From positions 1-64,000 of IMG/VR virus record IMGVR_UViG_3300027974_000023: a stretch of 64,000 bases of DNA; one strand, 5' to 3'. Both the position numbers and the translations under genes were made by a program. Positions 1 to 37,084 of this stretch are shown piece by piece. The stretch comes from a virus. Each line of letters begins with the position of its first letter. The first letter of the stretch is position 1. The notes below the pieces were generated by a model that searched no databases, had not been told where the DNA came from, and saw only the letters and a list, made by a program, of their open reading frames with translations.

Positions 1-1
1 C

Positions 2-244
2 AATAGTATTGAGCCTTATAAAGGCAAAAATGAAATTACTGTAAGGGGTAGGGGAGGCACAAGTTTTGAACCTGTACTTGACTATTATTCAGCTAATGGA
101 AAAAAGTTTACAAGTCTTGTGTATTTTACTGATGGTGAGTGTTACACCAGTCAGAGGCCAAAAGGAAATGTATTGTGGGTTATTTCTGAAAGATCACAAT
201 TAAACACAGCACTTCCTGGAAAAGTAATCAAGCTTGAGCTTTAA
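2..244 (+). CDS. 3' end of vWA-domain / DUF2201-like metallopeptidase (partial)
   Basis: Manual translation in frame 2: ...VRGRGGTSFEPVLDYY...LVYFTDGEC...VLWVIS...LPGKVIKLEL*. GGT and FTDG are vWA MIDAS-region motifs; lies upstream of a MoxR-like ATPase. Confidence 0.8.
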   Translation, partial: NSIEPYKGKNEITVRGRGGTSFEPVLDYYSANGKKFTSLVYFTDGECYTSQRPKGNVLWVISERSQLNTALPGKVIKLEL

Positions 245-279
245 TTCTAATTTAATTACTTGATCACATTTTTTGTGTT

Positions 280-287
280 TATATTTG
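280..287 (+). promoter_or_regulatory. Bacteroidota sigma70 -7 box (TATATTTG)
   Basis: Matches TAnnTTTG, 3 nt upstream of the ATG at 291. Confidence 0.55.
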
Positions 288-290
288 TAT

Positions 291-1031
291 ATGAAACTAT
301 TGACATTAAAAGAAGATTTAATTAAAAAATCTGGAATATATCTTATTGAGTGTAATTCTCATAAGTATATTGGAAGCAGTGTTAATTTATATGACAGATA
401 TAAACAACATGCTTATGCATTAAGGAAAGGAAAACATTATAATAGTTTTCTACAAAATCTGTATAATAAATATCCAGATAATATAAGTTTTAAGCTTATT
501 GAAATTTGCAGTAATTATATTGAAAGAGAGCTTTATTATATTGAATATTACAATTGTGATGTTAATGTAGAAAGAAATCCCGTAACTCAGGCAAAAAGCA
601 TTGAAACAAGAAAAAAATTAAGTATGGCTAACAGAAATAAAAGGTTAGGTAAAGAAAATCATGCTTCTGTAAAAGTATATCAATATACTTTAGAAGGTGT
701 CTATGTAAATGAATATAATACAATAAGAGAAGCTGCTTTAGCTGTTAATGGCAATGCTACATCTATAGGTGATGCAGCAAAAGGAGATACTAAATCTGCT
801 GGAGGATATCAATGGAGAAAAGAAAAATTAGATAAAATTCCTTGTATTTCCAAAAGACAAAGAAAGCCTTATAGTATTAAAAAAATAAGCATTTTTGATG
901 GTAAATCTTATTGTATTGTATCAAGTATTAAAGAAGCTGCTTTATTGTTAAATGCAAATGAAGGAGCTGTTAGAAAAGCCTTAACACATAATTTTAAGTG
1001 TAAAGGGAAAGTTATTAAGTTAGAATTATAA
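291..1031 (+). CDS. GIY-YIG homing endonuclease with NUMOD DNA-binding domains
   Basis: SGIYLIECNSHKYIGSS; NUMOD1-like KVYQYTLEG...TIREAA...SAGGYQWR. ATG at 291 preferred over TTG at 273. Confidence 0.9.
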   Translation: MKLLTLKEDLIKKSGIYLIECNSHKYIGSSVNLYDRYKQHAYALRKGKHYNSFLQNLYNKYPDNISFKLIEICSNYIERELYYIEYYNCDVNVERNPVTQAKSIETRKKLSMANRNKRLGKENHASVKVYQYTLEGVYVNEYNTIREAALAVNGNATSIGDAAKGDTKSAGGYQWRKEKLDKIPCISKRQRKPYSIKKISIFDGKSYCIVSSIKEAALLLNANEGAVRKALTHNFKCKGKVIKLEL

Positions 1032-1043
1032 AAAATTAAAGTT

Positions 1044-2216
1044 ATGAGTAAGTCAGTTCAATTAAATTTAGATGAGATTAAGGATTTTGTTAAATTCATG
1101 GTTAAGAATAACCAACACATTCAATCACAAGGTAAGGTTCCTGTAGCAATCAATATTGAGGGTGATGCAGGTTTGGGTAAAACATCTTCAGTTAAGCAAC
1201 TTTCTAAAGAGCTTAACATGGATGTAATTAGATTAAACTTAGCAGAGTTTGAGGAATTGGGTGATTTAGTAGGTTTTCCTGTTAAAGAATTTGAGATTCA
1301 AAATGCAGAGGGTAAGAAAACATGGATCAATGAGCACCAGATTGATGCTGCCATGAAGAAAGGTTACAAGGTAACAGACAAGAGAATGTCTCATGCTGCT
1401 CCAGATTGGATCCAAGGTAAAGGTGAAGGTGGATTCTTAATTCTTGATGACTACACCAGAGCTGACCATAGATTCATGCAAGCTACCATGACTCTTATTG
1501 ATGAGCAAGCATATGCTTCTTGGAAATTACCTAAGAACTGGCATATTTTGTTAACTACTAATCCAGACAATGGTGATTATAATGTAACTTCTCTAGATAT
1601 TGCTCAGAAAACAAGATTTATCTCAACTGAAGTTAAGTTTGATGTAAATGTTTGGGCAAGATGGGCAGAGACTGTTAGTATTGACGGTAGATGTATCAAC
1701 TTTTTGTTAATGCATCCTGAATTAGTATCTCAAAGTGTAAATCCAAGAGCAATTACAACTTTCTTTAACTCAATTAGTTCAATTGATGATTTTGGAAAAA
1801 ATTTACCAATAATTCAAATGATTGGTGAAGGTTCTGTAGGTCCTGAATTTGCATCTATGTTTACTATGTTTATTAATAATAAACTTGATAAGATCATTAG
1901 TCCTGAAACTATTATGACTAAGGATGAAACTTATGTTTTAGGAGCATTGAAAGGGGCTGTTGGAGAAGGAGATGATTTCCGTGCTGATATAGCAAGCGTT
2001 ATTTCAACAAGAATTGTCAATTATTCTTTAACTTTTGCTGATAAGAATACTGTTCCTAAAGAAATGGTACAAAGAATAGGCAAAATTGTTACTGATTGTG
2101 AATCTTTTACATCTGATTTAAAATATTATATGATCAAAGAGATTGTCAATGGTAACAAGAATAAATTTGGTTTGCTTATGATGCAACCAGAGATTGTTAA
2201 AATGGCTGTGAAATAA
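1044..2216 (+). CDS. MoxR-like AAA+ ATPase
   Basis: Walker A GDAGLGKT, Walker B FLILDD, sensor TTNP, LDIAQKTRF; partner vWA gene upstream. Confidence 0.85.
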   Translation: MSKSVQLNLDEIKDFVKFMVKNNQHIQSQGKVPVAINIEGDAGLGKTSSVKQLSKELNMDVIRLNLAEFEELGDLVGFPVKEFEIQNAEGKKTWINEHQIDAAMKKGYKVTDKRMSHAAPDWIQGKGEGGFLILDDYTRADHRFMQATMTLIDEQAYASWKLPKNWHILLTTNPDNGDYNVTSLDIAQKTRFISTEVKFDVNVWARWAETVSIDGRCINFLLMHPELVSQSVNPRAITTFFNSISSIDDFGKNLPIIQMIGEGSVGPEFASMFTMFINNKLDKIISPETIMTKDETYVLGALKGAVGEGDDFRADIASVISTRIVNYSLTFADKNTVPKEMVQRIGKIVTDCESFTSDLKYYMIKEIVNGNKNKFGLLMMQPEIVKMAVK

Positions 2217-2268
2217 ATCACAAGTGAGCATTTCACATAAAAAAACAATTTAATTATTATTAACCAAG

Positions 2269-2300
2269 ATAGGGGGTGATTACATCCCCTATTTTATTTT
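2269..2300 (+). terminator. intrinsic terminator
   Basis: Stem ATAGGGGGTG / CATCCCCTAT, loop ATTA, followed by a T-rich tract. Confidence 0.7.
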
Positions 2301-2309
2301 TAAAAGATT

Positions 2310-3680
2310 ATGATAAATATATTATATTTTAATTTGAATGGAAACAATAGAGATCCAAGAAATAGCAAATGGACTAGTTTTGATTTAAGTGACATCTCAC
2401 TTGAATGTGTTTCTGAAGAGTCTGACTTTTTTAATATAAGTAAAGATCCATATACACCAGTAAAAGGAGATAAATATTATTTTCTTGACAAAGTAAACAT
2501 TCCTAGAGTGAAATTAAAAGAATTTCATGATGAAAATGGTACTAAAACAGTGAGAGATATTACTCAAGCAACACATGTTTTTATTGGTGATGCTACTGAA
2601 GATTTTTATGTTGATAAAGCTTATAGATATTCTATACCTACAAGTTTATTTAAGAAGTTTGTTGAGTTGCATACTGAGTGTTTTGATACAATGCGTATTG
2701 AAGATATCAGACAAGCATTAGAGTTTTATAATGAAGACACAGTTTATCTTAATTATCAAGGTATAAAATTATTTGTTGATACATCATTACTTCACTATTC
2801 TGAATTAATTAAGGATCCTGCATATAATAATGATGATTTTCAATATTCTAAAACAGTGTATTATATTAAACCTGAGTATTTATCAATATACAACCAGATA
2901 AAAGATCTTACATTGTGTCATGAGTCTTGTTTAACTAGTGTACTTAATGGTACTAATGCTGCTGTTATTGATGAAGAAATGTTTGCTAGATTATCTGCTA
3001 TGTTTGACAGTAATGATAGAGATAACTGGGTTTTAGCAATGGAAATAATGGCAAATTCTAAATATGAAGAAAGTCTTTATTTCATAGAGTTGTTGTTTAA
3101 AGAACATTCCAGTAGAATGTATGACACACCAACTAAAAGACATGTTAATTTTAAATCATTAGTTACTTATCTTGGTAAAGGTTCTTATTTTAATACAGGT
3201 TTAGATAGTATAGTTAAAAGCTTGATTGATAAACAAGTTTTAACACATGACATACTTACTGATTTAATGCATAGATATAAGCAAGAAATTATCAGTGGAG
3301 GTGAGAGTACTTACTTTACAATTAAAGATATCAGTGTAACTGAAGAGATACATAATATTATCAATAAGAACTTTGCTTATAATCTAGTAGAAGATTTTGT
3401 TCCAGAGGTAGAAGAAGTTGTTGCTCCGGAAGAAGAAGTAATCTCTGATGATTTCTTAAACTACATTCCGACTGATGAAGAAGCAACTTTTACTCAATTA
3501 GGTGAAGAGCCTACAGATGAGATTGAAGAAGTAGTTGATGAAGTAATTGAAGAAGAACTTCCAGGAACAGAGATTGAAATAGAGATTGAATCTACATTTG
3601 AAATTGAAGAAGAAGTATTTGAAACACAAGTTGTTGAACCTAAAAAAGAAGAAGATGAGTCAAGCATTGATTGGTTCTAA
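2310..3680 (+). CDS. hypothetical protein with possible BRCT-like N-terminal region and long acidic tail
   Basis: 456-aa ORF; IPRVKLKEF...TVRDITQATHVFIG weakly resembles BRCT; Glu-rich C-terminus ending SIDWF. Confidence 0.6.
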   Translation: MINILYFNLNGNNRDPRNSKWTSFDLSDISLECVSEESDFFNISKDPYTPVKGDKYYFLDKVNIPRVKLKEFHDENGTKTVRDITQATHVFIGDATEDFYVDKAYRYSIPTSLFKKFVELHTECFDTMRIEDIRQALEFYNEDTVYLNYQGIKLFVDTSLLHYSELIKDPAYNNDDFQYSKTVYYIKPEYLSIYNQIKDLTLCHESCLTSVLNGTNAAVIDEEMFARLSAMFDSNDRDNWVLAMEIMANSKYEESLYFIELLFKEHSSRMYDTPTKRHVNFKSLVTYLGKGSYFNTGLDSIVKSLIDKQVLTHDILTDLMHRYKQEIISGGESTYFTIKDISVTEEIHNIINKNFAYNLVEDFVPEVEEVVAPEEEVISDDFLNYIPTDEEATFTQLGEEPTDEIEEVVDEVIEEELPGTEIEIEIESTFEIEEEVFETQVVEPKKEEDESSIDWF

Positions 3681-4674
3681 TGAGGAATTAGAACAGTTTT
3701 ACAAAAAAAAGTTTTACTTTAGCTACAGCGGGATAAATAAGTTGCTATTTTCTCCTGGCATGTTTTACAGCCACTATGTTCTTAACCAAAGAGAAGACTC
3801 AACAGACGCGCACCTGGTAGCAGGGCGCGTTCTGCATTGTCTACTATTTGAAGAAGATAAGTTTGAAGAACAATTTCTCACATTACCCGGCAAAGTGCCA
3901 ACAGATAGTCAGAAGAAAATTATTGATGGTATTTTTAAATATCATATGACAATTGGAAACAATACACTATCTTTGTTGGACTACTCTCAAGATATACTCT
4001 CCAATCTACTCTCAGCTAATCTCTATCAAACTCTCAAGACTGATCAACAAAGACTTGACAAAGTTTTAACTCCAGAAAACATAGAGTATTTTGATTTCTT
4101 AAAAGCTAGCCTAGGCAAAACAGTAGTAGATGAAGTGACTCTTAGCAATTGCAGAGCACAAGTTGAGGTCCTTAGAGCTAATCAAGATGTAAGAGCTTTA
4201 TTACAGTTAGATAGAAACTTGAATGATGATTCTATCAATACTGCAAGTGAGTTAAAACTAACCTATGACAATCCAGATTTATCATTTGGCTTACATGGTG
4301 TGCTTGACAATGTTGTTGTTGACAAAAACTCAAAGACCATTTTTATTAATGACTTAAAGACCACTGCAAAATCAATTCAAGATTTCCCGGAAAGTGTTGA
4401 GTATTATAGATACTGGCTCCAAGCTGTTATCTATTCTGTACTTGTAACAGACAAATTTTTAAAAGGAAGAGAGGATAAAGAAGATTGGAAAACTCAGATT
4501 ACTTTTATAGTAATAGATAAATACAATCAAGTTTATCCTTTTCAAGTGAGTGAAGAAACTCTAGTGAAATGGAAGGCAAACTTTAAAGAGTTAATTGTCA
4601 AAGTTAAATGGCATTATGACAACAGAAGATATGACTTACCATATGATCTAGCATTAGGTAATGTAAAATTGTAA
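3655..4674 (+). CDS. PD-(D/E)XK exonuclease (RecE/Cas4-like)
   Basis: FSYSGINKLL, GRVLHC, GVLDNVVVD...INDLKTT, YWLQAVIY. Start moved to ATG 3655 (MSQAL). Confidence 0.8.
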   Translation: MSQALIGSNEELEQFYKKKFYFSYSGINKLLFSPGMFYSHYVLNQREDSTDAHLVAGRVLHCLLFEEDKFEEQFLTLPGKVPTDSQKKIIDGIFKYHMTIGNNTLSLLDYSQDILSNLLSANLYQTLKTDQQRLDKVLTPENIEYFDFLKASLGKTVVDEVTLSNCRAQVEVLRANQDVRALLQLDRNLNDDSINTASELKLTYDNPDLSFGLHGVLDNVVVDKNSKTIFINDLKTTAKSIQDFPESVEYYRYWLQAVIYSVLVTDKFLKGREDKEDWKTQITFIVIDKYNQVYPFQVSEETLVKWKANFKELIVKVKWHYDNRRYDLPYDLALGNVKL

Positions 4675-5700: not shown

Positions 5701-5787
5701 AACTAAAACGGGGAAACAGCTTAACTGAATTATGATATGAGGACACACATGAGGACATATTTATTTTGTTTCATAGTCAGAAATTAC

Positions 5788-5795
5788 TATCTTTG
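5788..5795 (+). promoter_or_regulatory. Bacteroidota sigma70 promoter (-33 TTTG 5765-5768, -7 TATCTTTG)
   Basis: Both boxes present with 19-nt spacing, upstream of the endonuclease ATG at 5814. Confidence 0.6.
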
Positions 5796-5813
5796 ATTAT
5801 TAAACTAATATTT

Positions 5814-6383
5814 ATGGAAACACAAATTTGTACTAAATGTAATACTGAACAGCTTATTACAGAATTTAGAAAAGACCAACATAATCCAACAGGTCATCAT
5901 GTTCATTGCCGAACTTGTTTCAATCTTTCTCAGAAAGAATATAGAACAAAAAATAAAGATTCATTTAATAATTATGCAAATAATTATTATAAAGAGAATG
6001 CTGAAAGAATTAAAGCAATGAGAAAGTTAAGAAGACAAGGCAAACCTACAACGGAATTTCATTCTAAAACTAAAATTTTTGATGAAACTTCTTATTATAA
6101 TAGAGGTGGTTGGAAAAAAAGAAGAGAAAAATCTTGGCGACAAAGAGGTATCATTGGAATGACTTATAATTTATATGAGCAAATGTTAATTGATCAGAAT
6201 AACAAATGTGCAATATGCAATTTAGAACATACTGATATTAAAAAACTACATGTGGATCATTGTCATAGTACTGGAAAAGTAAGAGGTCTTCTTTGCAGTA
6301 ATTGTAATAATGGTATGGGTAAATTAGGAGATTCTATTGAAAGATTACAATTAGCTATTAATTATTTAAAACAAAGTGTATGA
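5814..6383 (+). CDS. Endonuclease VII-family (HNH-like) homing endonuclease
   Basis: N-terminal CTKC...CRTC zinc finger; CAIC...LHVDHCHSTGKVRGLLCSNCNNGMG. Overlaps the polymerase start (ATGA). Confidence 0.9.
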   Translation: METQICTKCNTEQLITEFRKDQHNPTGHHVHCRTCFNLSQKEYRTKNKDSFNNYANNYYKENAERIKAMRKLRRQGKPTTEFHSKTKIFDETSYYNRGGWKKRREKSWRQRGIIGMTYNLYEQMLIDQNNKCAICNLEHTDIKKLHVDHCHSTGKVRGLLCSNCNNGMGKLGDSIERLQLAINYLKQSV

Positions 6384-33209: not shown

Positions 33210-36200
33210 TTAATGTTTCCAACCAAAGTTTTTAGGTATATATCCAAGTGCTTTTTCAGCATTTCTCATTGCATCAGTATTACCAGTTGCATGAAACTCT
33301 TTATATTTTGCTAAATTTTTTTGAATTCTTATTGCCATTTGTTGATTTGCTTGATATACAAGTTGATCAACATTATTTCCTAATTGTTCTGAACTAAGTA
33401 TAGAACTATTAGATATCAATCTACCATCTGGACCAAGTTCATTAAATGTAATATTAGCTCTGTATGACTCATCACCCATTTTCTCTATAGTGTAGCGTCC
33501 TGCATTACTTGGATCTTTATAGTTAAGTCTTCCATCAGGAGAACTGTTTATAATAGATTGAACAGGTGTTGTTATATTACCTTTAAACAAACTATTTTTC
33601 CATTCATGTCTAGGAGCAACAAAAGTAATTCCTTCACCAACAATTTTGTTTACAATTTCATTATCAACTTTACCCTTGTCATCTTTAAAGAATTTTTCAG
33701 CAAAACTTCTAGGAACTTTAACAGTCATTGAACCAAGATTTTTATTTTCTAAGGCAATTTGACTTTGAGCTAACATAAAGTCTTCAGGTTTAGTTTTATC
33801 TCTTATAGTATAAGACAAGGCTCTTAACATGTCTTTGTATTTTTGAGCATCTACATTTAAGTTTTCTGCTTCACCAAGAGTTTTATTACCAATAGTTACT
33901 CTATACTTAGTATTATCATTTTTAAAATTGATACGCTCCAAGTCATTTAAGAATTCAAAATAAGCAGTATTACCATATGTTCCTACTGCTCCTATATTTA
34001 CAACAGCAGCTGTTTGATTTGCAGCCATAGTAGCTCTACCATCTTTTCCATTTATAAGAGTTGGAAAAGGAGATAATAATCCTGATTTTTTATCTGCATT
34101 AGAGACAATGTTATAGTATGCATTGTCCATATCTGTTATTAAACTTTTTAATGTACCTTTTGCAGCTATCTTTGGAGATGTATAACCAGCTTTACTTTCA
34201 AATTGCTGTGCATATTGCTTTACTTCACTATTTGTTAAATTATTAAATCTAACATCATGCATTTGTCCAGGAGTTTTACGACCTTTTGCTTTATCTTTTT
34301 GTTGTAGATAAGCAAATAGTTTTTTATCATAATCAGCAGATTCTTTAGCACTACCTGTTGGCCCAGTTTTTAATGGCTCTTTATTTTTAAAATCAGGTTC
34401 ATATTTTTCCAGTATGTACTTAGTTGCAATATTAACAAAGTCATCATCATCATATTGATGTGTTACAACTTTTCTTTTATATAAATCAACAAGAGCTTTT
34501 TTAGTTTGTTCACTATAACCAGAGTTTGCAATGTTTTTCATCAATGCATTATCTATTCTTTCATCATTTGTAGCTTTAGTTTTATAGTATTGTTTTGCAT
34601 ACCATTCAAATTGCTGAACATCTACATCATGATTAGCCAATCTATCAGTAGCCTGATCTGGTGCTAATATTAAAGCAGCTTCCTCTTTACCACTATTTTT
34701 AACAGCCCATTTTTTTAACTGATCTCTGTATTTAAAAAGTTTACCTGATGTTGCTAAATAATTTGTACCAGCAGCTTCATCTTTTTTAAATTTGCTATAT
34801 TCTTTATAAAACTCACCTTTTGCTTGACTAAAGTCTTGATTAGCTTTAAGAGTTTCATTAGGATGCATAATTGCCCAAAGTTCATCATTTTGCAATTGTC
34901 CTGTTTCATAAAGATTAGCTACAGTAGAATACATATTTTTAGCATAACCACTTGTTAAGCTAGATACTTTTTCAAAGTAATCACCAGCCATCAATGTTGG
35001 AATATTTTCAATTTTAGTTTCAGTACCATCTGGGTTTACACCTAGATTAATTGTTCTTGTATATGCAGGATTAGGTTTAATATCACCGTTTATGTCATAT
35101 ACATAAGCACCACTTGTTACTAAACTTTTGTTACGTTCAATTAACTTAGCAGCATTAGCTGTTTTTTCAGCTCTTTGATCAGCTCTTTGATCACTTATTG
35201 CTTGTCTCTGCATTGCATGTTGATGACTAACATTCTCCATGTAAAGTTTACTGAAGTCTTGTTTAAACACCATGTCTTGACGTGCATGAATATCAGCTGC
35301 ACCCATAACATCTTGTTCAGCATCAAAAGCAGCAATACCAGAATCTATCTTTAATCTAGCAAGCTCCATGTTAGTAAGATCTAAACCAGCAGCATTAGTC
35401 GGTCCTTGTGTAGTTAAAGTTCTTGATTCACCATTAAGTTTTTCATTAAGACTAGAACTATGAGCACTTACTTTTGTGTTTATCTCATAAAGCTCATTAA
35501 GCTTTCTTAAGTATTCATTTTGAGATGGGTTTACATCACCTTTTTCAACAGCTACTTCAACATTATTTTTCTTAGTTTCTGTCACCTTAACAGCCTCAGC
35601 ATGATTCTGAGCTCTCTTAGCTGAATACGCACTTAGTTCATTGTACTTAGTTTGTAAGTATTCTTTTTCAGCAGCTAGTTTATCACCTTTAAATCTTTCA
35701 GCATTTTGGTTAACATAATCATTTCTGTTTACATATGCTTGTGTTGCATATACTTTTTGAAGAGCTGGGTTGCTAGTGTATTCTGCTAAGAATAGTTTTT
35801 GTAAGGTAGGAAGTATTAAGTCTCCGTTCTTTTGTCTTACCATGTACATACCTGAAGCATCTGGCTTTTCAATATCTACTGATAAGTTCATTTCTTTTGC
35901 AAGTTCTCTATATACTTTAGCAGCATTCACATAAGGAGTATATTGAGCAGTACCAATATTTAAAGTTTTTTCTAAATCAGAATTTCTAAACTCTTCTTTT
36001 TTATACTGTAATTCTTTAATACCAGTATCCCAGTATTGACCGCTCATTTTTTCATCAGGATTATTTTGTAAAGCCTGAGCACTACCTAAAGTACTATTCC
36101 AATTTTTTGTCCAAGCCATATCTTTCATCAAATACTTATCTTCATAGAAAGGTTTGAATACTTGTTTTGCTTGGTTTACATTTTGATCCAATGACAAATC

Positions 36201-36443
36201 TAGACCAGAAACTCTTTTAAGTTCAAAATCTAAATTCTTTAAAAGTTGATCTTTCTTCTGAATGTTTTTATCATGAGTCAAATCAGAATCATATAGTTCA
36301 CCATATAAGTTATTAATCGCCTTATAATTAGTATCATACTGATTTTGCTTTGTCTGCATTGCATTAGCATAAAAGTTTAAGTCAGGTTGGAATGGTTGTA
36401 GTTCCGGAATAAAGTCTGTGACACCTTGAAGATAAGTACTCAT
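33210..36443 (-). CDS. virion cargo / internal protein
   Basis: 1077-aa Cys-free helical ORF; N-terminal FQPDLNFY...QNQYD; position upstream of the giant cargo genes. Confidence 0.65.
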   Translation of the reverse strand: MSTYLQGVTDFIPELQPFQPDLNFYANAMQTKQNQYDTNYKAINNLYGELYDSDLTHDKNIQKKDQLLKNLDFELKRVSGLDLSLDQNVNQAKQVFKPFYEDKYLMKDMAWTKNWNSTLGSAQALQNNPDEKMSGQYWDTGIKELQYKKEEFRNSDLEKTLNIGTAQYTPYVNAAKVYRELAKEMNLSVDIEKPDASGMYMVRQKNGDLILPTLQKLFLAEYTSNPALQKVYATQAYVNRNDYVNQNAERFKGDKLAAEKEYLQTKYNELSAYSAKRAQNHAEAVKVTETKKNNVEVAVEKGDVNPSQNEYLRKLNELYEINTKVSAHSSSLNEKLNGESRTLTTQGPTNAAGLDLTNMELARLKIDSGIAAFDAEQDVMGAADIHARQDMVFKQDFSKLYMENVSHQHAMQRQAISDQRADQRAEKTANAAKLIERNKSLVTSGAYVYDINGDIKPNPAYTRTINLGVNPDGTETKIENIPTLMAGDYFEKVSSLTSGYAKNMYSTVANLYETGQLQNDELWAIMHPNETLKANQDFSQAKGEFYKEYSKFKKDEAAGTNYLATSGKLFKYRDQLKKWAVKNSGKEEAALILAPDQATDRLANHDVDVQQFEWYAKQYYKTKATNDERIDNALMKNIANSGYSEQTKKALVDLYKRKVVTHQYDDDDFVNIATKYILEKYEPDFKNKEPLKTGPTGSAKESADYDKKLFAYLQQKDKAKGRKTPGQMHDVRFNNLTNSEVKQYAQQFESKAGYTSPKIAAKGTLKSLITDMDNAYYNIVSNADKKSGLLSPFPTLINGKDGRATMAANQTAAVVNIGAVGTYGNTAYFEFLNDLERINFKNDNTKYRVTIGNKTLGEAENLNVDAQKYKDMLRALSYTIRDKTKPEDFMLAQSQIALENKNLGSMTVKVPRSFAEKFFKDDKGKVDNEIVNKIVGEGITFVAPRHEWKNSLFKGNITTPVQSIINSSPDGRLNYKDPSNAGRYTIEKMGDESYRANITFNELGPDGRLISNSSILSSEQLGNNVDQLVYQANQQMAIRIQKNLAKYKEFHATGNTDAMRNAEKALGYIPKNFGWKH

Positions 36444-37084
36444 TATAAATATATTAAGTTTGTATTATTTTTTCTCTTACCTAAGAGTCTTCTAGATAAT
36501 TCATATTTTGGTATATTCAATATATCAGAAGCAACTCTAAGTGATTCATATATTTCTCCAGTAATTGTATTTTTTACCTGTTTTCTTTTAATACTATGTA
36601 CTTTATAGAAATCTACATTTTTTAATTTTTCTCTAGCTTTAGCTAAATTTATTTTGCATTCTTCTGAATGATTATATTTTTTACCTGCTTCATAACAGTT
36701 AGGATGTAATTTTTTACCTTTAAAATGTTGTCTAAGTTTTTCTTTTGTTTCTTCTGAATGTAAAGAACAACCGTCTGGATCAGTAGGTTTTAAGTTATAA
36801 CCTATTTCTCTATCTAAACAACTATAATAGTCAACCCAAAAATGTTCTTTTTCATGTAAAAGATCTGTGTCACATAACTCAACAACTTCAAACTTAAAAT
36901 TTAATTCTCCATATTTATTCCAAGCATGTTGTAAGTAATCATTCTTGTGAACACCTTTTCTTAAATCATATAAATGACCATTTTTTCTTGTTCTGATATT
37001 TGAAGCACATCCAATATAAATCTTATTATTAACAAGATTAGTAATCTTGTATATACCAGGTGAAGATTGTAAGTACGTTGCCAT
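36443..37084 (-). CDS. GIY-YIG homing endonuclease (NUMOD3)
   Basis: PGIYKITNLVNNKIYIGCA; GYNL; HSEETKEKLR. Confidence 0.92.
   Translation of the reverse strand: MATYLQSSPGIYKITNLVNNKIYIGCASNIRTRKNGHLYDLRKGVHKNDYLQHAWNKYGELNFKFEVVELCDTDLLHEKEHFWVDYYSCLDREIGYNLKPTDPDGCSLHSEETKEKLRQHFKGKKLHPNCYEAGKKYNHSEECKINLAKAREKLKNVDFYKVHSIKRKQVKNTITGEIYESLRVASDILNIPKYELSRRLLGKRKNNTNLIYL

Follow-up and report, generated by a model that had tools for sequence, protein, structure and literature searches.

A GIY-YIG endonuclease cassette in the 3' end of a conserved phage gene, between two differently spelled copies of the gene's last codons

The subject of this study is the beginning of a 64,000-nucleotide stretch of viral DNA (IMG/VR virus record IMGVR_UViG_3300027974_000023, positions 1 to 64,000; below, the window), in which a GIY-YIG endonuclease gene stands between a gene for a vWA-like protein and a gene for a MoxR-like ATPase. 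The vWA-like protein and the endonuclease end in the same eight residues, and the codons used for them are mostly different. How does an endonuclease gene come to end in a copy of its neighbor's C-terminus, which of the two copies is the original one, and does the second copy serve the enzyme in any way?

Two copies of one gene end

The two tails, GGAAAAGTAATCAAGCTTGAGCTTTAA (window 218-244) and GGGAAAGTTATTAAGTTAGAATTATAA (window 1005-1031), each translate to GKVIKLEL followed by a stop codon. They differ at 8 of 24 bases; that 6 of 8 codons differ without any amino-acid change had been pointed out in the initial annotation of this DNA, made from its letters without database searches. The first tail closes an open reading frame (ORF) at 2..244, which is open at the window start, and the second closes an ORF at 273/291..1031. 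The upstream ORF is a DUF2201 'VWA-like domain' protein (PF09967; E = 2.1e-07), in which profile position 123 of 123 is reached at residue 79 of 80. Since this match extends to the last profile position, the eight tail residues are part of the domain; the upstream copy continues the reading frame of the vWA-like gene and brings its profile match to the end. The middle ORF has Pfam matches to GIY-YIG (PF01541, E = 8.6e-06, above the cut-off) and NUMOD1 (E = 1.3e-07), and the downstream ORF has a weak AAA match and a match to PHROG 1297 'ATPase' (E = 1.9e-32). When same-strand ORF pairs at most 2.5 kb apart were compared in the window and 90 loci, at least six identical C-terminal residues were shared in endonuclease cases only (one of them in the window); the shared tail of the window is not due to chance. 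The features of the region are listed below, the vWA-like gene being called the host gene of the cassette.

2..244, plus strand: vWA-like (DUF2201, PF09967) host gene, 3' part as now read, truncated by the window start
218..1004, plus strand: inserted cassette of 787 bp, from comparison with relative L011 (220-1006 fits equally, with GG at each junction)
218..244, plus strand: introduced, silently respelled replacement tail of 8 codons and a stop, completing the host gene (8 of 24 bases unlike L011 and L002)
245..290, plus strand: cassette spacer of 46 bases with TATATTTG at 280-287, a candidate promoter (conserved in relatives)
291..1031, plus strand: GIY-YIG / NUMOD1 gene, very probably for a homing endonuclease, 246 codons, without a stop of its own (Pfam, AlphaFold)
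1005..1031, plus strand: displaced native host tail with the original stop, forming the last 8 endonuclease codons (identical to the vWA end of L011 and L002)
1032..2216, plus strand: native 12-base spacer and MoxR-like ATPase gene (1044-2216), which would serve as right-hand homology (PHROG 1297, match to L011)
2266-2295: terminator-like hairpin

A search with the ATPase yielded 595 relatives in viral contigs, the best 80 of which were kept as comparison loci (L numbers). In none of these best 80 of 595 is the vWA stop separated from the start of the ATPase gene by an endonuclease gene. The gap between the two genes measures 6-30 bases in 76 of the 80 and 163-184 bases in the other 4 (in L002 it is 12 bases by direct reading, an automated figure of 1095 being an intron artefact), and in all 80 the vWA-like protein ends in LPG followed by [KQR][VI]IKLE[LI]. 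The three nearest endonuclease-free relatives (L011, L002 and L001, with ATPases 95-98% identical) use the spelling of the downstream copy. Window 1005-1046, comprising the 27-base vWA end, a 12-base spacer and the start of the ATPase gene, recurs without a difference in L011 and L002; L001 is one silent base off the downstream copy and has a spacer of 19 bases. L011 joins the counterpart of window 90-217 directly to that of 1005-1123 with zero differences, the first right-hand difference being found at 1124.

Since L011 has no insert and joins 217 to 1005 exactly, a 787-bp cassette is inserted in the window, and the identity of L011 and L002 with the downstream copy means that the downstream tail is the resident one and that the upstream tail came with the insertion. 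The cassette consists of the respelled tail, a stop codon, the 46-base spacer and a GIY-YIG/NUMOD1 gene without its own stop, and it sits in a conserved phage vWA-like gene, with 24 bases between its right end and the original stop. The endonuclease frame reads through the original tail to the original stop, so the native ATPase spacing is untouched. The main proposals of the initial annotation hold on these points, namely that the element had entered the last vWA codons, brought a replacement end with it, become fused in frame to the original tail and kept the spacing to the ATPase gene, and that the vWA 3' ends of endonuclease-free relatives would match 1005-1031 and run straight into the ATPase gene.

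The same polarity was found wherever it could be read. The nearest empty allele of each occupied locus was picked by the identity of the flanks, and in 16 of 16 comparisons it was the downstream copy that lay closer to this allele (of the 19 loci of this class, 3 had flanks too short to be compared). In the three tightest pairs the numbers of differences in the upstream and downstream copies are 8 and 0 for the window and L011 (flank 97% identical), 6 and 1 for L092 and L020 (99.7%), and 7 and 2 for L082 and L067 (95%). In the distant L089 lineage the empty loci L199-L201 (ATPase 82% identical) are, by a codon count made by eye, 3 bases from the downstream and 6 from the upstream copy. Both signs of a 3'-end replacement are thus present: a nuclease gene between two copies of a host tail, and a resident downstream copy with a newcomer upstream.

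Phage records contributed nothing to this comparison: a nucleotide search of them with window 1-2300 gave no match, and a protein search gave only MoxR-like ATPases 21-25% identical, so that no cultured relative was usable for this uncultured phage. The exact 27-base upstream tail has 0 matches in the viral contigs, and the donor of the window's cassette is therefore absent from that collection.

The arrangement recurs at the same site. A search with the endonuclease protein found 8 viral-contig loci (67-85% identity), all of them between vWA-like and ATPase genes, and in each an ORF of 246 codons reads on into a tail of the host type. An alignment of 35 homologues led to 26 metagenome loci, of which 15 (L091-L105; 39-82% identity) were inspected; the remaining 11 match part of the catalytic domain only and lie outside the counts. 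The same layout was seen in 15 of 15 of these loci and in L089 and L090, which gives 26 occupied loci in total (8 from viral contigs, 15 from metagenomes, L089, L090 and the window itself). One further homologue, P0035, had no locus in viral contigs. Occupied (26) and empty (80) loci share one fixed site.

The spacer is conserved as well, in 8 of 8 viral-contig relatives and after 13 of the 14 vWA-tail matches described below (the 14th, L318, is without a cassette). Its octamer TATATTTG at 280-287 fits TAnnTTTG, which we take to be the -7 element of Bacteroidota, and ends 3 bases before the endonuclease ATG at 291. This motif, already noted in the initial annotation, is kept in all occupied alleles examined, including that of a 46%-identical relative, and the distant L089 has the identical octamer 4 bases before its ATG. 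It is plausible, judged from the sequence, that the octamer is a promoter giving a leaderless message. A sigma-70 scan proved uninformative as a promoter test in this AT-rich DNA, and a regulatory hairpin in 205-330 was discarded, the fold being no better than that of shuffled sequences (z 0.72). In window 1-2200 Rfam found no RNA family up to E = 1 (the same tool detects the group I intron of L002), and at the gathering score it found no intron in L020, L061, L089 or L090. Three TAnnTTTG octamers of the window stand near an ORF start: one is that of the cassette, and another (5788-5795) is reported 18 bases before an HNH/Endo VII-type gene at 5766-6383.

Mobility and the respelled tail

The cassettes are more alike between phages than the genes around them. 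Cassette DNA of the window is 80.7-84% identical to that of L081-L085, L088, L091 and L092, and in the same pairs the identity is 66-73% in the vWA flank and 71-78% in the ATPase flank (86% for L092). The window's own closest relatives are without a cassette. In the pair L093 and L098 the cassettes are 97.1% identical and the flanks 80% and 82%. The left edge of the shared block differs from case to case: in L093/L098 it falls between tail codon 5 and the CTT GAA CTT ending, in L098/L100 the block begins about 30 bases further left, and in L092/L020 the differences reach about 110 bases left of the stop. Such variable tract edges are the pattern expected from double-strand-break repair with co-conversion.

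Lake run X2, which comes from another sample, contains contigs of the occupied allele at depth 10.5 and contigs at depth 49-63 that break at 231 and 1031 into an empty-type tail, so that occupied and empty states coexist in one sample; the empty-type contigs belong to a relative about 92% identical. Joints from 144 to 1004-1010 were not counted, as their sides were shorter than 30 letters, with a likeness of 90%. At this one site related phages either have the cassette or lack it, and its identity between phages exceeds that of the flanks, which is the combination (presence or absence at a fixed site with flank-discordant identity) that marks a homing endonuclease. Taken together, these comparisons make it very probable that the element is a 3'-end-replacement cassette with a free-standing GIY-YIG homing endonuclease.

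Under this interpretation the enzyme would cut endonuclease-free alleles at or near the vWA end, and the break would be repaired from an occupied genome during mixed infection, with the vWA gene as left homology and the displaced tail together with the ATPase gene as right homology. At the upstream junction of the resulting allele the left flank would be kept, the tail respelled and the right flank new; at the downstream junction the tail and the right flank would be kept and the left flank new. Neither junction would then rebuild the full target, so the carrier should be immune. According to the available text of a T4 review, I-TevI-type enzymes bind at the insertion site and cut upstream of it (PMC2988022), and by analogy with them a junction-spanning target would be broken at both junctions. 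That the bases linked with occupancy are confined to the tail and the positions directly following it (see below) fits, as indirect evidence, a possible role of the respelling in keeping the upstream junction from restoring the target of the enzyme. The element may have originated in a one-sided repair of a break at the junction, in which the 3' end of the endonuclease gene became joined to a right end that had escaped resection.

The bases linked with occupancy were sought by comparing 16 distinct occupied with 60 distinct empty sequences over the last 240 bases of the gene and 12 further bases. The discriminating positions are confined to -32 to +12 of the vWA stop. These are (counted from the end of the stop): (i) C at -11 and T at -9, found in 16/16 occupied and 1/60 empty sequences, (ii) A at -24 (16/16 and 8/60) and (iii) T at -3 (16/16 and 9/60). 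The two tail copies of one genome differ on average at 7.7 of 24 bases (19 loci), and the mean pairwise difference among 31 distinct empty tails is 4.3.

Several observations weigh against this account or lessen its force. First, near-duplicates are present among the occupied loci (L086/L099 and L093-L095), so that independent counts are below the raw ones. Second, the rule that the upstream copy comes from the donor and the downstream copy from the recipient predicts pairs that are mixed at tail residue 2, and zero were found: residue 2 is identical between the two copies in 19 of 19 loci of this class (K/K in 13, Q/Q in 5, namely L086, L093-L095 and L099, and H/H in L087). Where residue 2 is Q or H, each copy writes it with a different codon (CAG/CAA, CAT/CAC), and the agreement holds although the cassettes of L093 (Q) and L098 (K) are 97% identical. 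Possible explanations are crossovers within the tail together with circulation in host clades, gene conversion over a short tract between the copies, or selection that acts on the two proteins alike. Third, TAnnTTTG is not enriched before the genes of the window (3 of 54 plus-strand matches lie at most 40 bases from an ORF start), so that the support for a promoter comes from the conservation of the spacer. Fourth, RNA run X18 gave zero cover over 232-1001, a result that was counted on this side and carries no weight either way. Finally, a search of all viral contigs with the degenerate ending gave 47 matches, 14 of them in vWA-tail context; 13 of the 14 are followed by the cassette spacer, and the 14th (L318, reverse strand) is endonuclease-free and runs directly into an ATPase gene that is 64% identical to that of the window. 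As its CTT GAA CTT ending is native, the respelling need not have arisen for immunity.

This last case leads to the most serious of the alternatives, that the different spelling has nothing to do with escape from cleavage. The tail would then be the natural allele of a diverged donor, co-converted with the cassette and kept unlike the resident copy since identical 24-base repeats would delete the cassette. In addition to L318, with its native ending directly before the ATPase gene, the co-conversion tracts of variable length speak for such an origin, and so does the interpretation of the inserted C-terminus as foreign DNA in fungal mitochondria (PMC3630166, available text). However, the signature bases are fixed in all 16 distinct occupied alleles, even across cassettes that are only about 73% identical in DNA, and this constancy exceeds what would be expected of a neutral hitch-hiking allele. 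On balance we consider a spelling unrelated to cleavage the less likely explanation, though one with real weight. Judging from the sequences, the cassette tail may be a captured foreign allele rather than a purpose-made one, and the L318 lineage could be its source or could carry a naturally resistant allele; a foreign origin and a role of the respelling in immunity can both hold.

The empty tails of L048, L050 and L061 consist of codons 1-5 of the window's upstream copy and the last three codons of the downstream copy of L085. Such tails could be the expected product of cassette loss by recombination between tail copies, or a coincidence.

The displaced tail as part of the endonuclease

Homing by 3'-end replacement would leave the native tail behind, and its fate can be followed in the protein. 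All 32 full-length homologues at least 65% identical are 246 amino acids long and end in x[KQRH][VI]IKLE[LI]. The GIY-YIG match is accompanied by structural likeness: a Foldseek search found the catalytic domain of I-TevI (1ln0_B, 1mk0 and 1ln0_A; E = 3.8e-05 to 1.4e-04, target-normalised TM 0.71-0.81), the N-terminal domain giving a target-normalised TM of 0.81 with 1ln0_B (E = 4.0e-05, 29% identity). Residues G15, Y17, Y26, G28, R36, E80 and N92, presumably the catalytic residues of the GIY-YIG domain, are invariant in 35 sequences. The C-terminal part has the modular DNA-binding build of such enzymes, as seen from the NUMOD1 match and two modelled modules; a NUMOD-like match to I-HmuI is weak (E = 0.0011, below its cut-off). 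In the AlphaFold model (mean pLDDT 85.1; last two blocks 82 and 78) both modules follow the order strand, strand, helix, helix, strand. The first is composed of strands 129-132 and 137-142, helices 145-151 and 156-164 and strand 173-176, and the second of strands 198-202 and 207-210, helices 213-220 and 224-233 and strand 240-245. The host-derived residues 240-245 are thus modelled as the closing strand of the second module, the counterpart of 173-176 in the first. We infer that the displaced tail has been exapted as the last beta-strand of the C-terminal DNA-binding module, where it would be a working part of the enzyme and no dead relic.

The C-terminus of the endonuclease tracks the tail of its host gene, with GKVIKLEL, GQ/KQ, KH, GLKIKLN and G-P/Y-QIKLN classes. 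Homologues 38-43% identical across the alignment have GLKIKLN-like ends, and the vWA-like genes of L089 and L090 also end in GLKIKLN; in L103-L105 the tail pairs are GPQIKLN / GYQIKLN and GPQIKLN / GYIIKLN. The intron-borne relative of L002 (40% identical) ends quite differently, as do the remote homologues P0037-P0044. The initial annotation had named two findings that would tell against its insertion model, namely empty alleles spelled as 218-244 and homologous endonucleases at unrelated loci ending in GKVIKLEL. Since C-termini differ at unrelated loci and the nearest empty alleles match the downstream copy, neither was encountered. The remote homologues end in strands of the form G-x-aromatic/hydrophobic-x-basic-aromatic, a pattern which the vWA tail happens to fit.

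A simpler explanation would be that the displaced tail is a functionless relic, in frame through recency or repeated homing, and that any short C-terminal extension would do. The event in the window is indeed recent, its flanks being identical to L011 over 128 and 119 bases; the displaced fragment of the yeast WHO elements discussed below need not stay open, according to the available text of PMC7282813; and the last domain does not align with the intron-borne relative in BLAST, a tblastn match ending at residue 203. Against it stands the persistence of the fusion, which is intact in 26 of 26 occupied loci (none of which has a stop or frameshift before the displaced tail); among full-length protein clusters it is intact in 35 of 35, even where the identity falls to 38-43% and the host tail is another one. 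Moreover, the first tail residue of the vWA protein is always G (in 80 of 80 empty genes and in every occupied one), whereas the endonuclease copy may have G, K, S, D or E there, followed by conserved residues. A free first residue followed by conserved ones means that the endonuclease copy has evolved in place under a constraint of its own. The model, in which the tail is a strand of the domain with the G-x-hydrophobic-hydrophobic-basic pattern that ends remote homologues, also disagrees with a relic, which we regard as improbable.

A reversed polarity, in which 218-244 would be resident and the endonuclease would have brought a tail copy at its own 3' end, has some support in Q-type hosts, where the upstream copy has CAG as in Q-type empty alleles and the downstream copy has CAA, and in L093/L098, where the first five upstream codons vary with the host; the counts of differences in the three tightest pairs (0, 1 and 2 downstream versus 8, 6 and 7 upstream) and the 16 of 16 comparisons overall leave it very little room and, for the window, contradict it. 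The least tenable view, that the 787 bases are an intron or intein whose removal joins the host protein to the downstream tail, can draw on the 40%-identical GIY-YIG relative that does occupy a group I intron in the L002 ATPase gene (RF00028, 79.3 bits), and it founders on the lack of any catalytic RNA core or in-frame splicing domain, given the empty Rfam result for window 1-2200, a 46-base spacer which, the remainder being ORF, leaves no room for an intron core, and an upstream copy with its own stop (242-244) followed by an endonuclease with its own start (291).

Neighboring sites and comparison with known systems

Other elements were found near the cassette site. The four wide vWA-ATPase gaps (L026, L027, L028 and L063) were considered as places of endonuclease remnants, and this was rejected: L026, L027 and L063 carry small unrelated ORFs. 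The gap ORFs were inspected in these three loci. The small ORFs at the junction have about 50-58 codons (L026 2421-2606, L063 3810-3989, L027/L028 3825-3989). Insertions of various kinds make the vWA-ATPase junction a hot spot.

Two further nuclease genes are associated with duplicated gene ends. In L089 (3755-5563) an HNH-type ORF 3' of the ATPase gene ends in LNADVVKIAMK. HNH-free ATPases end in LNADVVKMAMK (L090, 3755-4939) or LNADVVKIAMK (L199-L201), followed by the same bases, and the ATPase of L089 itself now ends in LNSEVVKIAMK. From its sequence this gene appears to have brought about a 3'-end replacement like that of the cassette, here in the ATPase gene and by a nuclease of another family. 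In the window, a second GIY-YIG gene (37084-36443, minus strand) starts with MATYLQ and the next gene (33210-36443, minus strand) with MSTYLQ, the stop of the former overlapping the start of the latter. In the endonuclease-free loci L121, L124, L127, L130 and L160 the gene start has the spelling of the endonuclease and the same upstream region. This second endonuclease is present in 8 of 80 loci compared, and the case (window 36443-37084) looks like a mirror image at the 5' end of a gene.

The vWA-like and ATPase genes also hold elements of other kinds. Window 45-89 differs from all three close relatives at ten positions, mainly third codon positions, and adjoins 128 identical bases. In L020 an element with a LAGLIDADG-type ORF (2858-3787) interrupts the vWA-like gene behind the GRGG codons, at the point matching window 58/59. 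The cluster of differences spans this point and is probably a scar or a resistant allele of another homing site. It was also considered as the recoded cleavage site of the present cassette and set aside, as it is unlinked to occupancy and the occupied contigs of runs X4 and X5 have L011-type letters there. In L090 (931-2017) and L089 (1019-1858) the 5' part of the vWA-like gene contains or is preceded by LAGLIDADG-type ORFs, one more in L090 than in L089. In L002 a group I intron (1615-2715; RF00028, 79.3 bits) splits the Walker A codons of the ATPase gene and carries the 40%-identical GIY-YIG gene, the adjoining exon codons being respelled relative to the window. One lake contig (run X4, ending at window 1168) has both the vWA-tail cassette and the start of an L002-type intron, and L207 and L208 have an endonuclease-like ORF ahead of residue 75 of the ATPase.

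Three unrelated terminal cassettes are thus seen in one phage group (two at a 3' end, one of them with a GIY-YIG and the other with an HNH nuclease, and one with a GIY-YIG nuclease at a 5' end). We put forward, with reserve and at somewhat less than even confidence, that terminal nesting is a general and so far unrecognised niche for phage homing endonucleases, free of introns and inteins, with displaced codons taken over as a strand of a DNA-binding module. Phage homing endonucleases could in this manner occupy conserved genes without splicing, by means of a spare, differently spelled gene end. If the tail is the last strand of the enzyme, the enzyme would be complete only when in frame at its own target, and if the tail does work there, a selfish gene would be completing its own protein with host codons. 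For annotation, short terminal duplications by nuclease genes would mark insertion sites and native ends and explain odd terminal peptides of endonucleases, and as the downstream copy gives the empty-allele junction directly, sequence alone allows a guess at where an uncharacterised enzyme has its target. For phage evolution, each invasion would swap a gene end and so lead to local mosaicism and discordant trees.

The closest counterparts lie outside phages and link phage biology to the logic of WHO/HO elements and mitochondrial mORFs. The comparison below follows the available text of the papers cited. Fungal mitochondrial mORFs form 'gene hybrids' in atp6 of Allomyces macrogynus, in atp6, atp9, cox2 and nad3 of Glomus sp., in atp9 of Rhizopus oryzae and in cox2 of Mortierella verticillata (PMC3630166). 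There too a diverged copy of the host C-terminus, brought by a LAGLIDADG enzyme (or, in atp9, a GIY-YIG one), replaces the native one, the native part remains downstream and matches close relatives, the differences are mostly synonymous, and some mORFs are in phase with the host coding sequence (PMC3630166). In contrast to them, the present element belongs to a phage and not an organelle and duplicates 24 bases instead of about 50-280 (PMC3630166); here the host gene stops first and the enzyme starts independently, in phase with the downstream native tail, and a use of the displaced tail by the enzyme is not described for mORFs in the available text (PMC3630166).

The WHO elements of Torulaspora and Lachancea yeasts replace the FBA1 3' end at each integration (Coughlan et al. 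2020, PMC7282813). They resemble the cassette in that the unit is a nuclease gene with an upstream 3' region conferring resistance, that the displaced fragment serves as repair homology and that no splicing is involved, and their cleavage is allele-specific by experiment (PMC7282813). They differ in their nuclear genome, meiotic homing, intein-like/zinc-finger nuclease and replacement of about 400 bases, and their displaced fragment is untranslated and decaying and builds tandem clusters (PMC7282813), whereas the window cassette replaces 8 codons, encodes a GIY-YIG enzyme, is present in a single copy and has its displaced tail translated within the enzyme.

Among phage enzymes, the T4-type Seg endonucleases are likewise free-standing GIY-YIG proteins encoded beside or between conserved genes, spreading by double-strand-break repair with co-conversion of the flanks, with differences in the target protecting the carrier (PMC2988022, PMC2330249). 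Their genes lie between genes and not in a coding end with a duplicated recoded terminus, and the words 'duplicat', 'fusion' and 'in-frame' do not occur in the available text of the T4 review (PMC2988022). Intron-encoded I-TevI-type enzymes share the catalytic fold and the modular NUMOD-type DNA-binding parts; unlike theirs, the present gene lies in no intron, and its host gene is kept whole by duplication, not by splicing. In the T5-like phages Shivani and phiR201 a GIY-YIG gene stands between spanin genes (Kongari et al. 2018, PMC6139136), where two genes once shared sequence and the insertion had to keep both ends coding. This is a passing remark on architecture, and the available text mentions no duplicated recoded terminus, homing model or in-frame displaced end (PMC6139136). 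It is the nearest case in the literature searched, the available text of which (including PMC10448857, PMC2988022 and PMC2248197) describes no duplicated recoded gene end beside a phage endonuclease. The cassette is therefore of a kind known from fungi and yeast, here in a clean phage variant with an added twist, the displaced host tail being read as the end of the enzyme itself.

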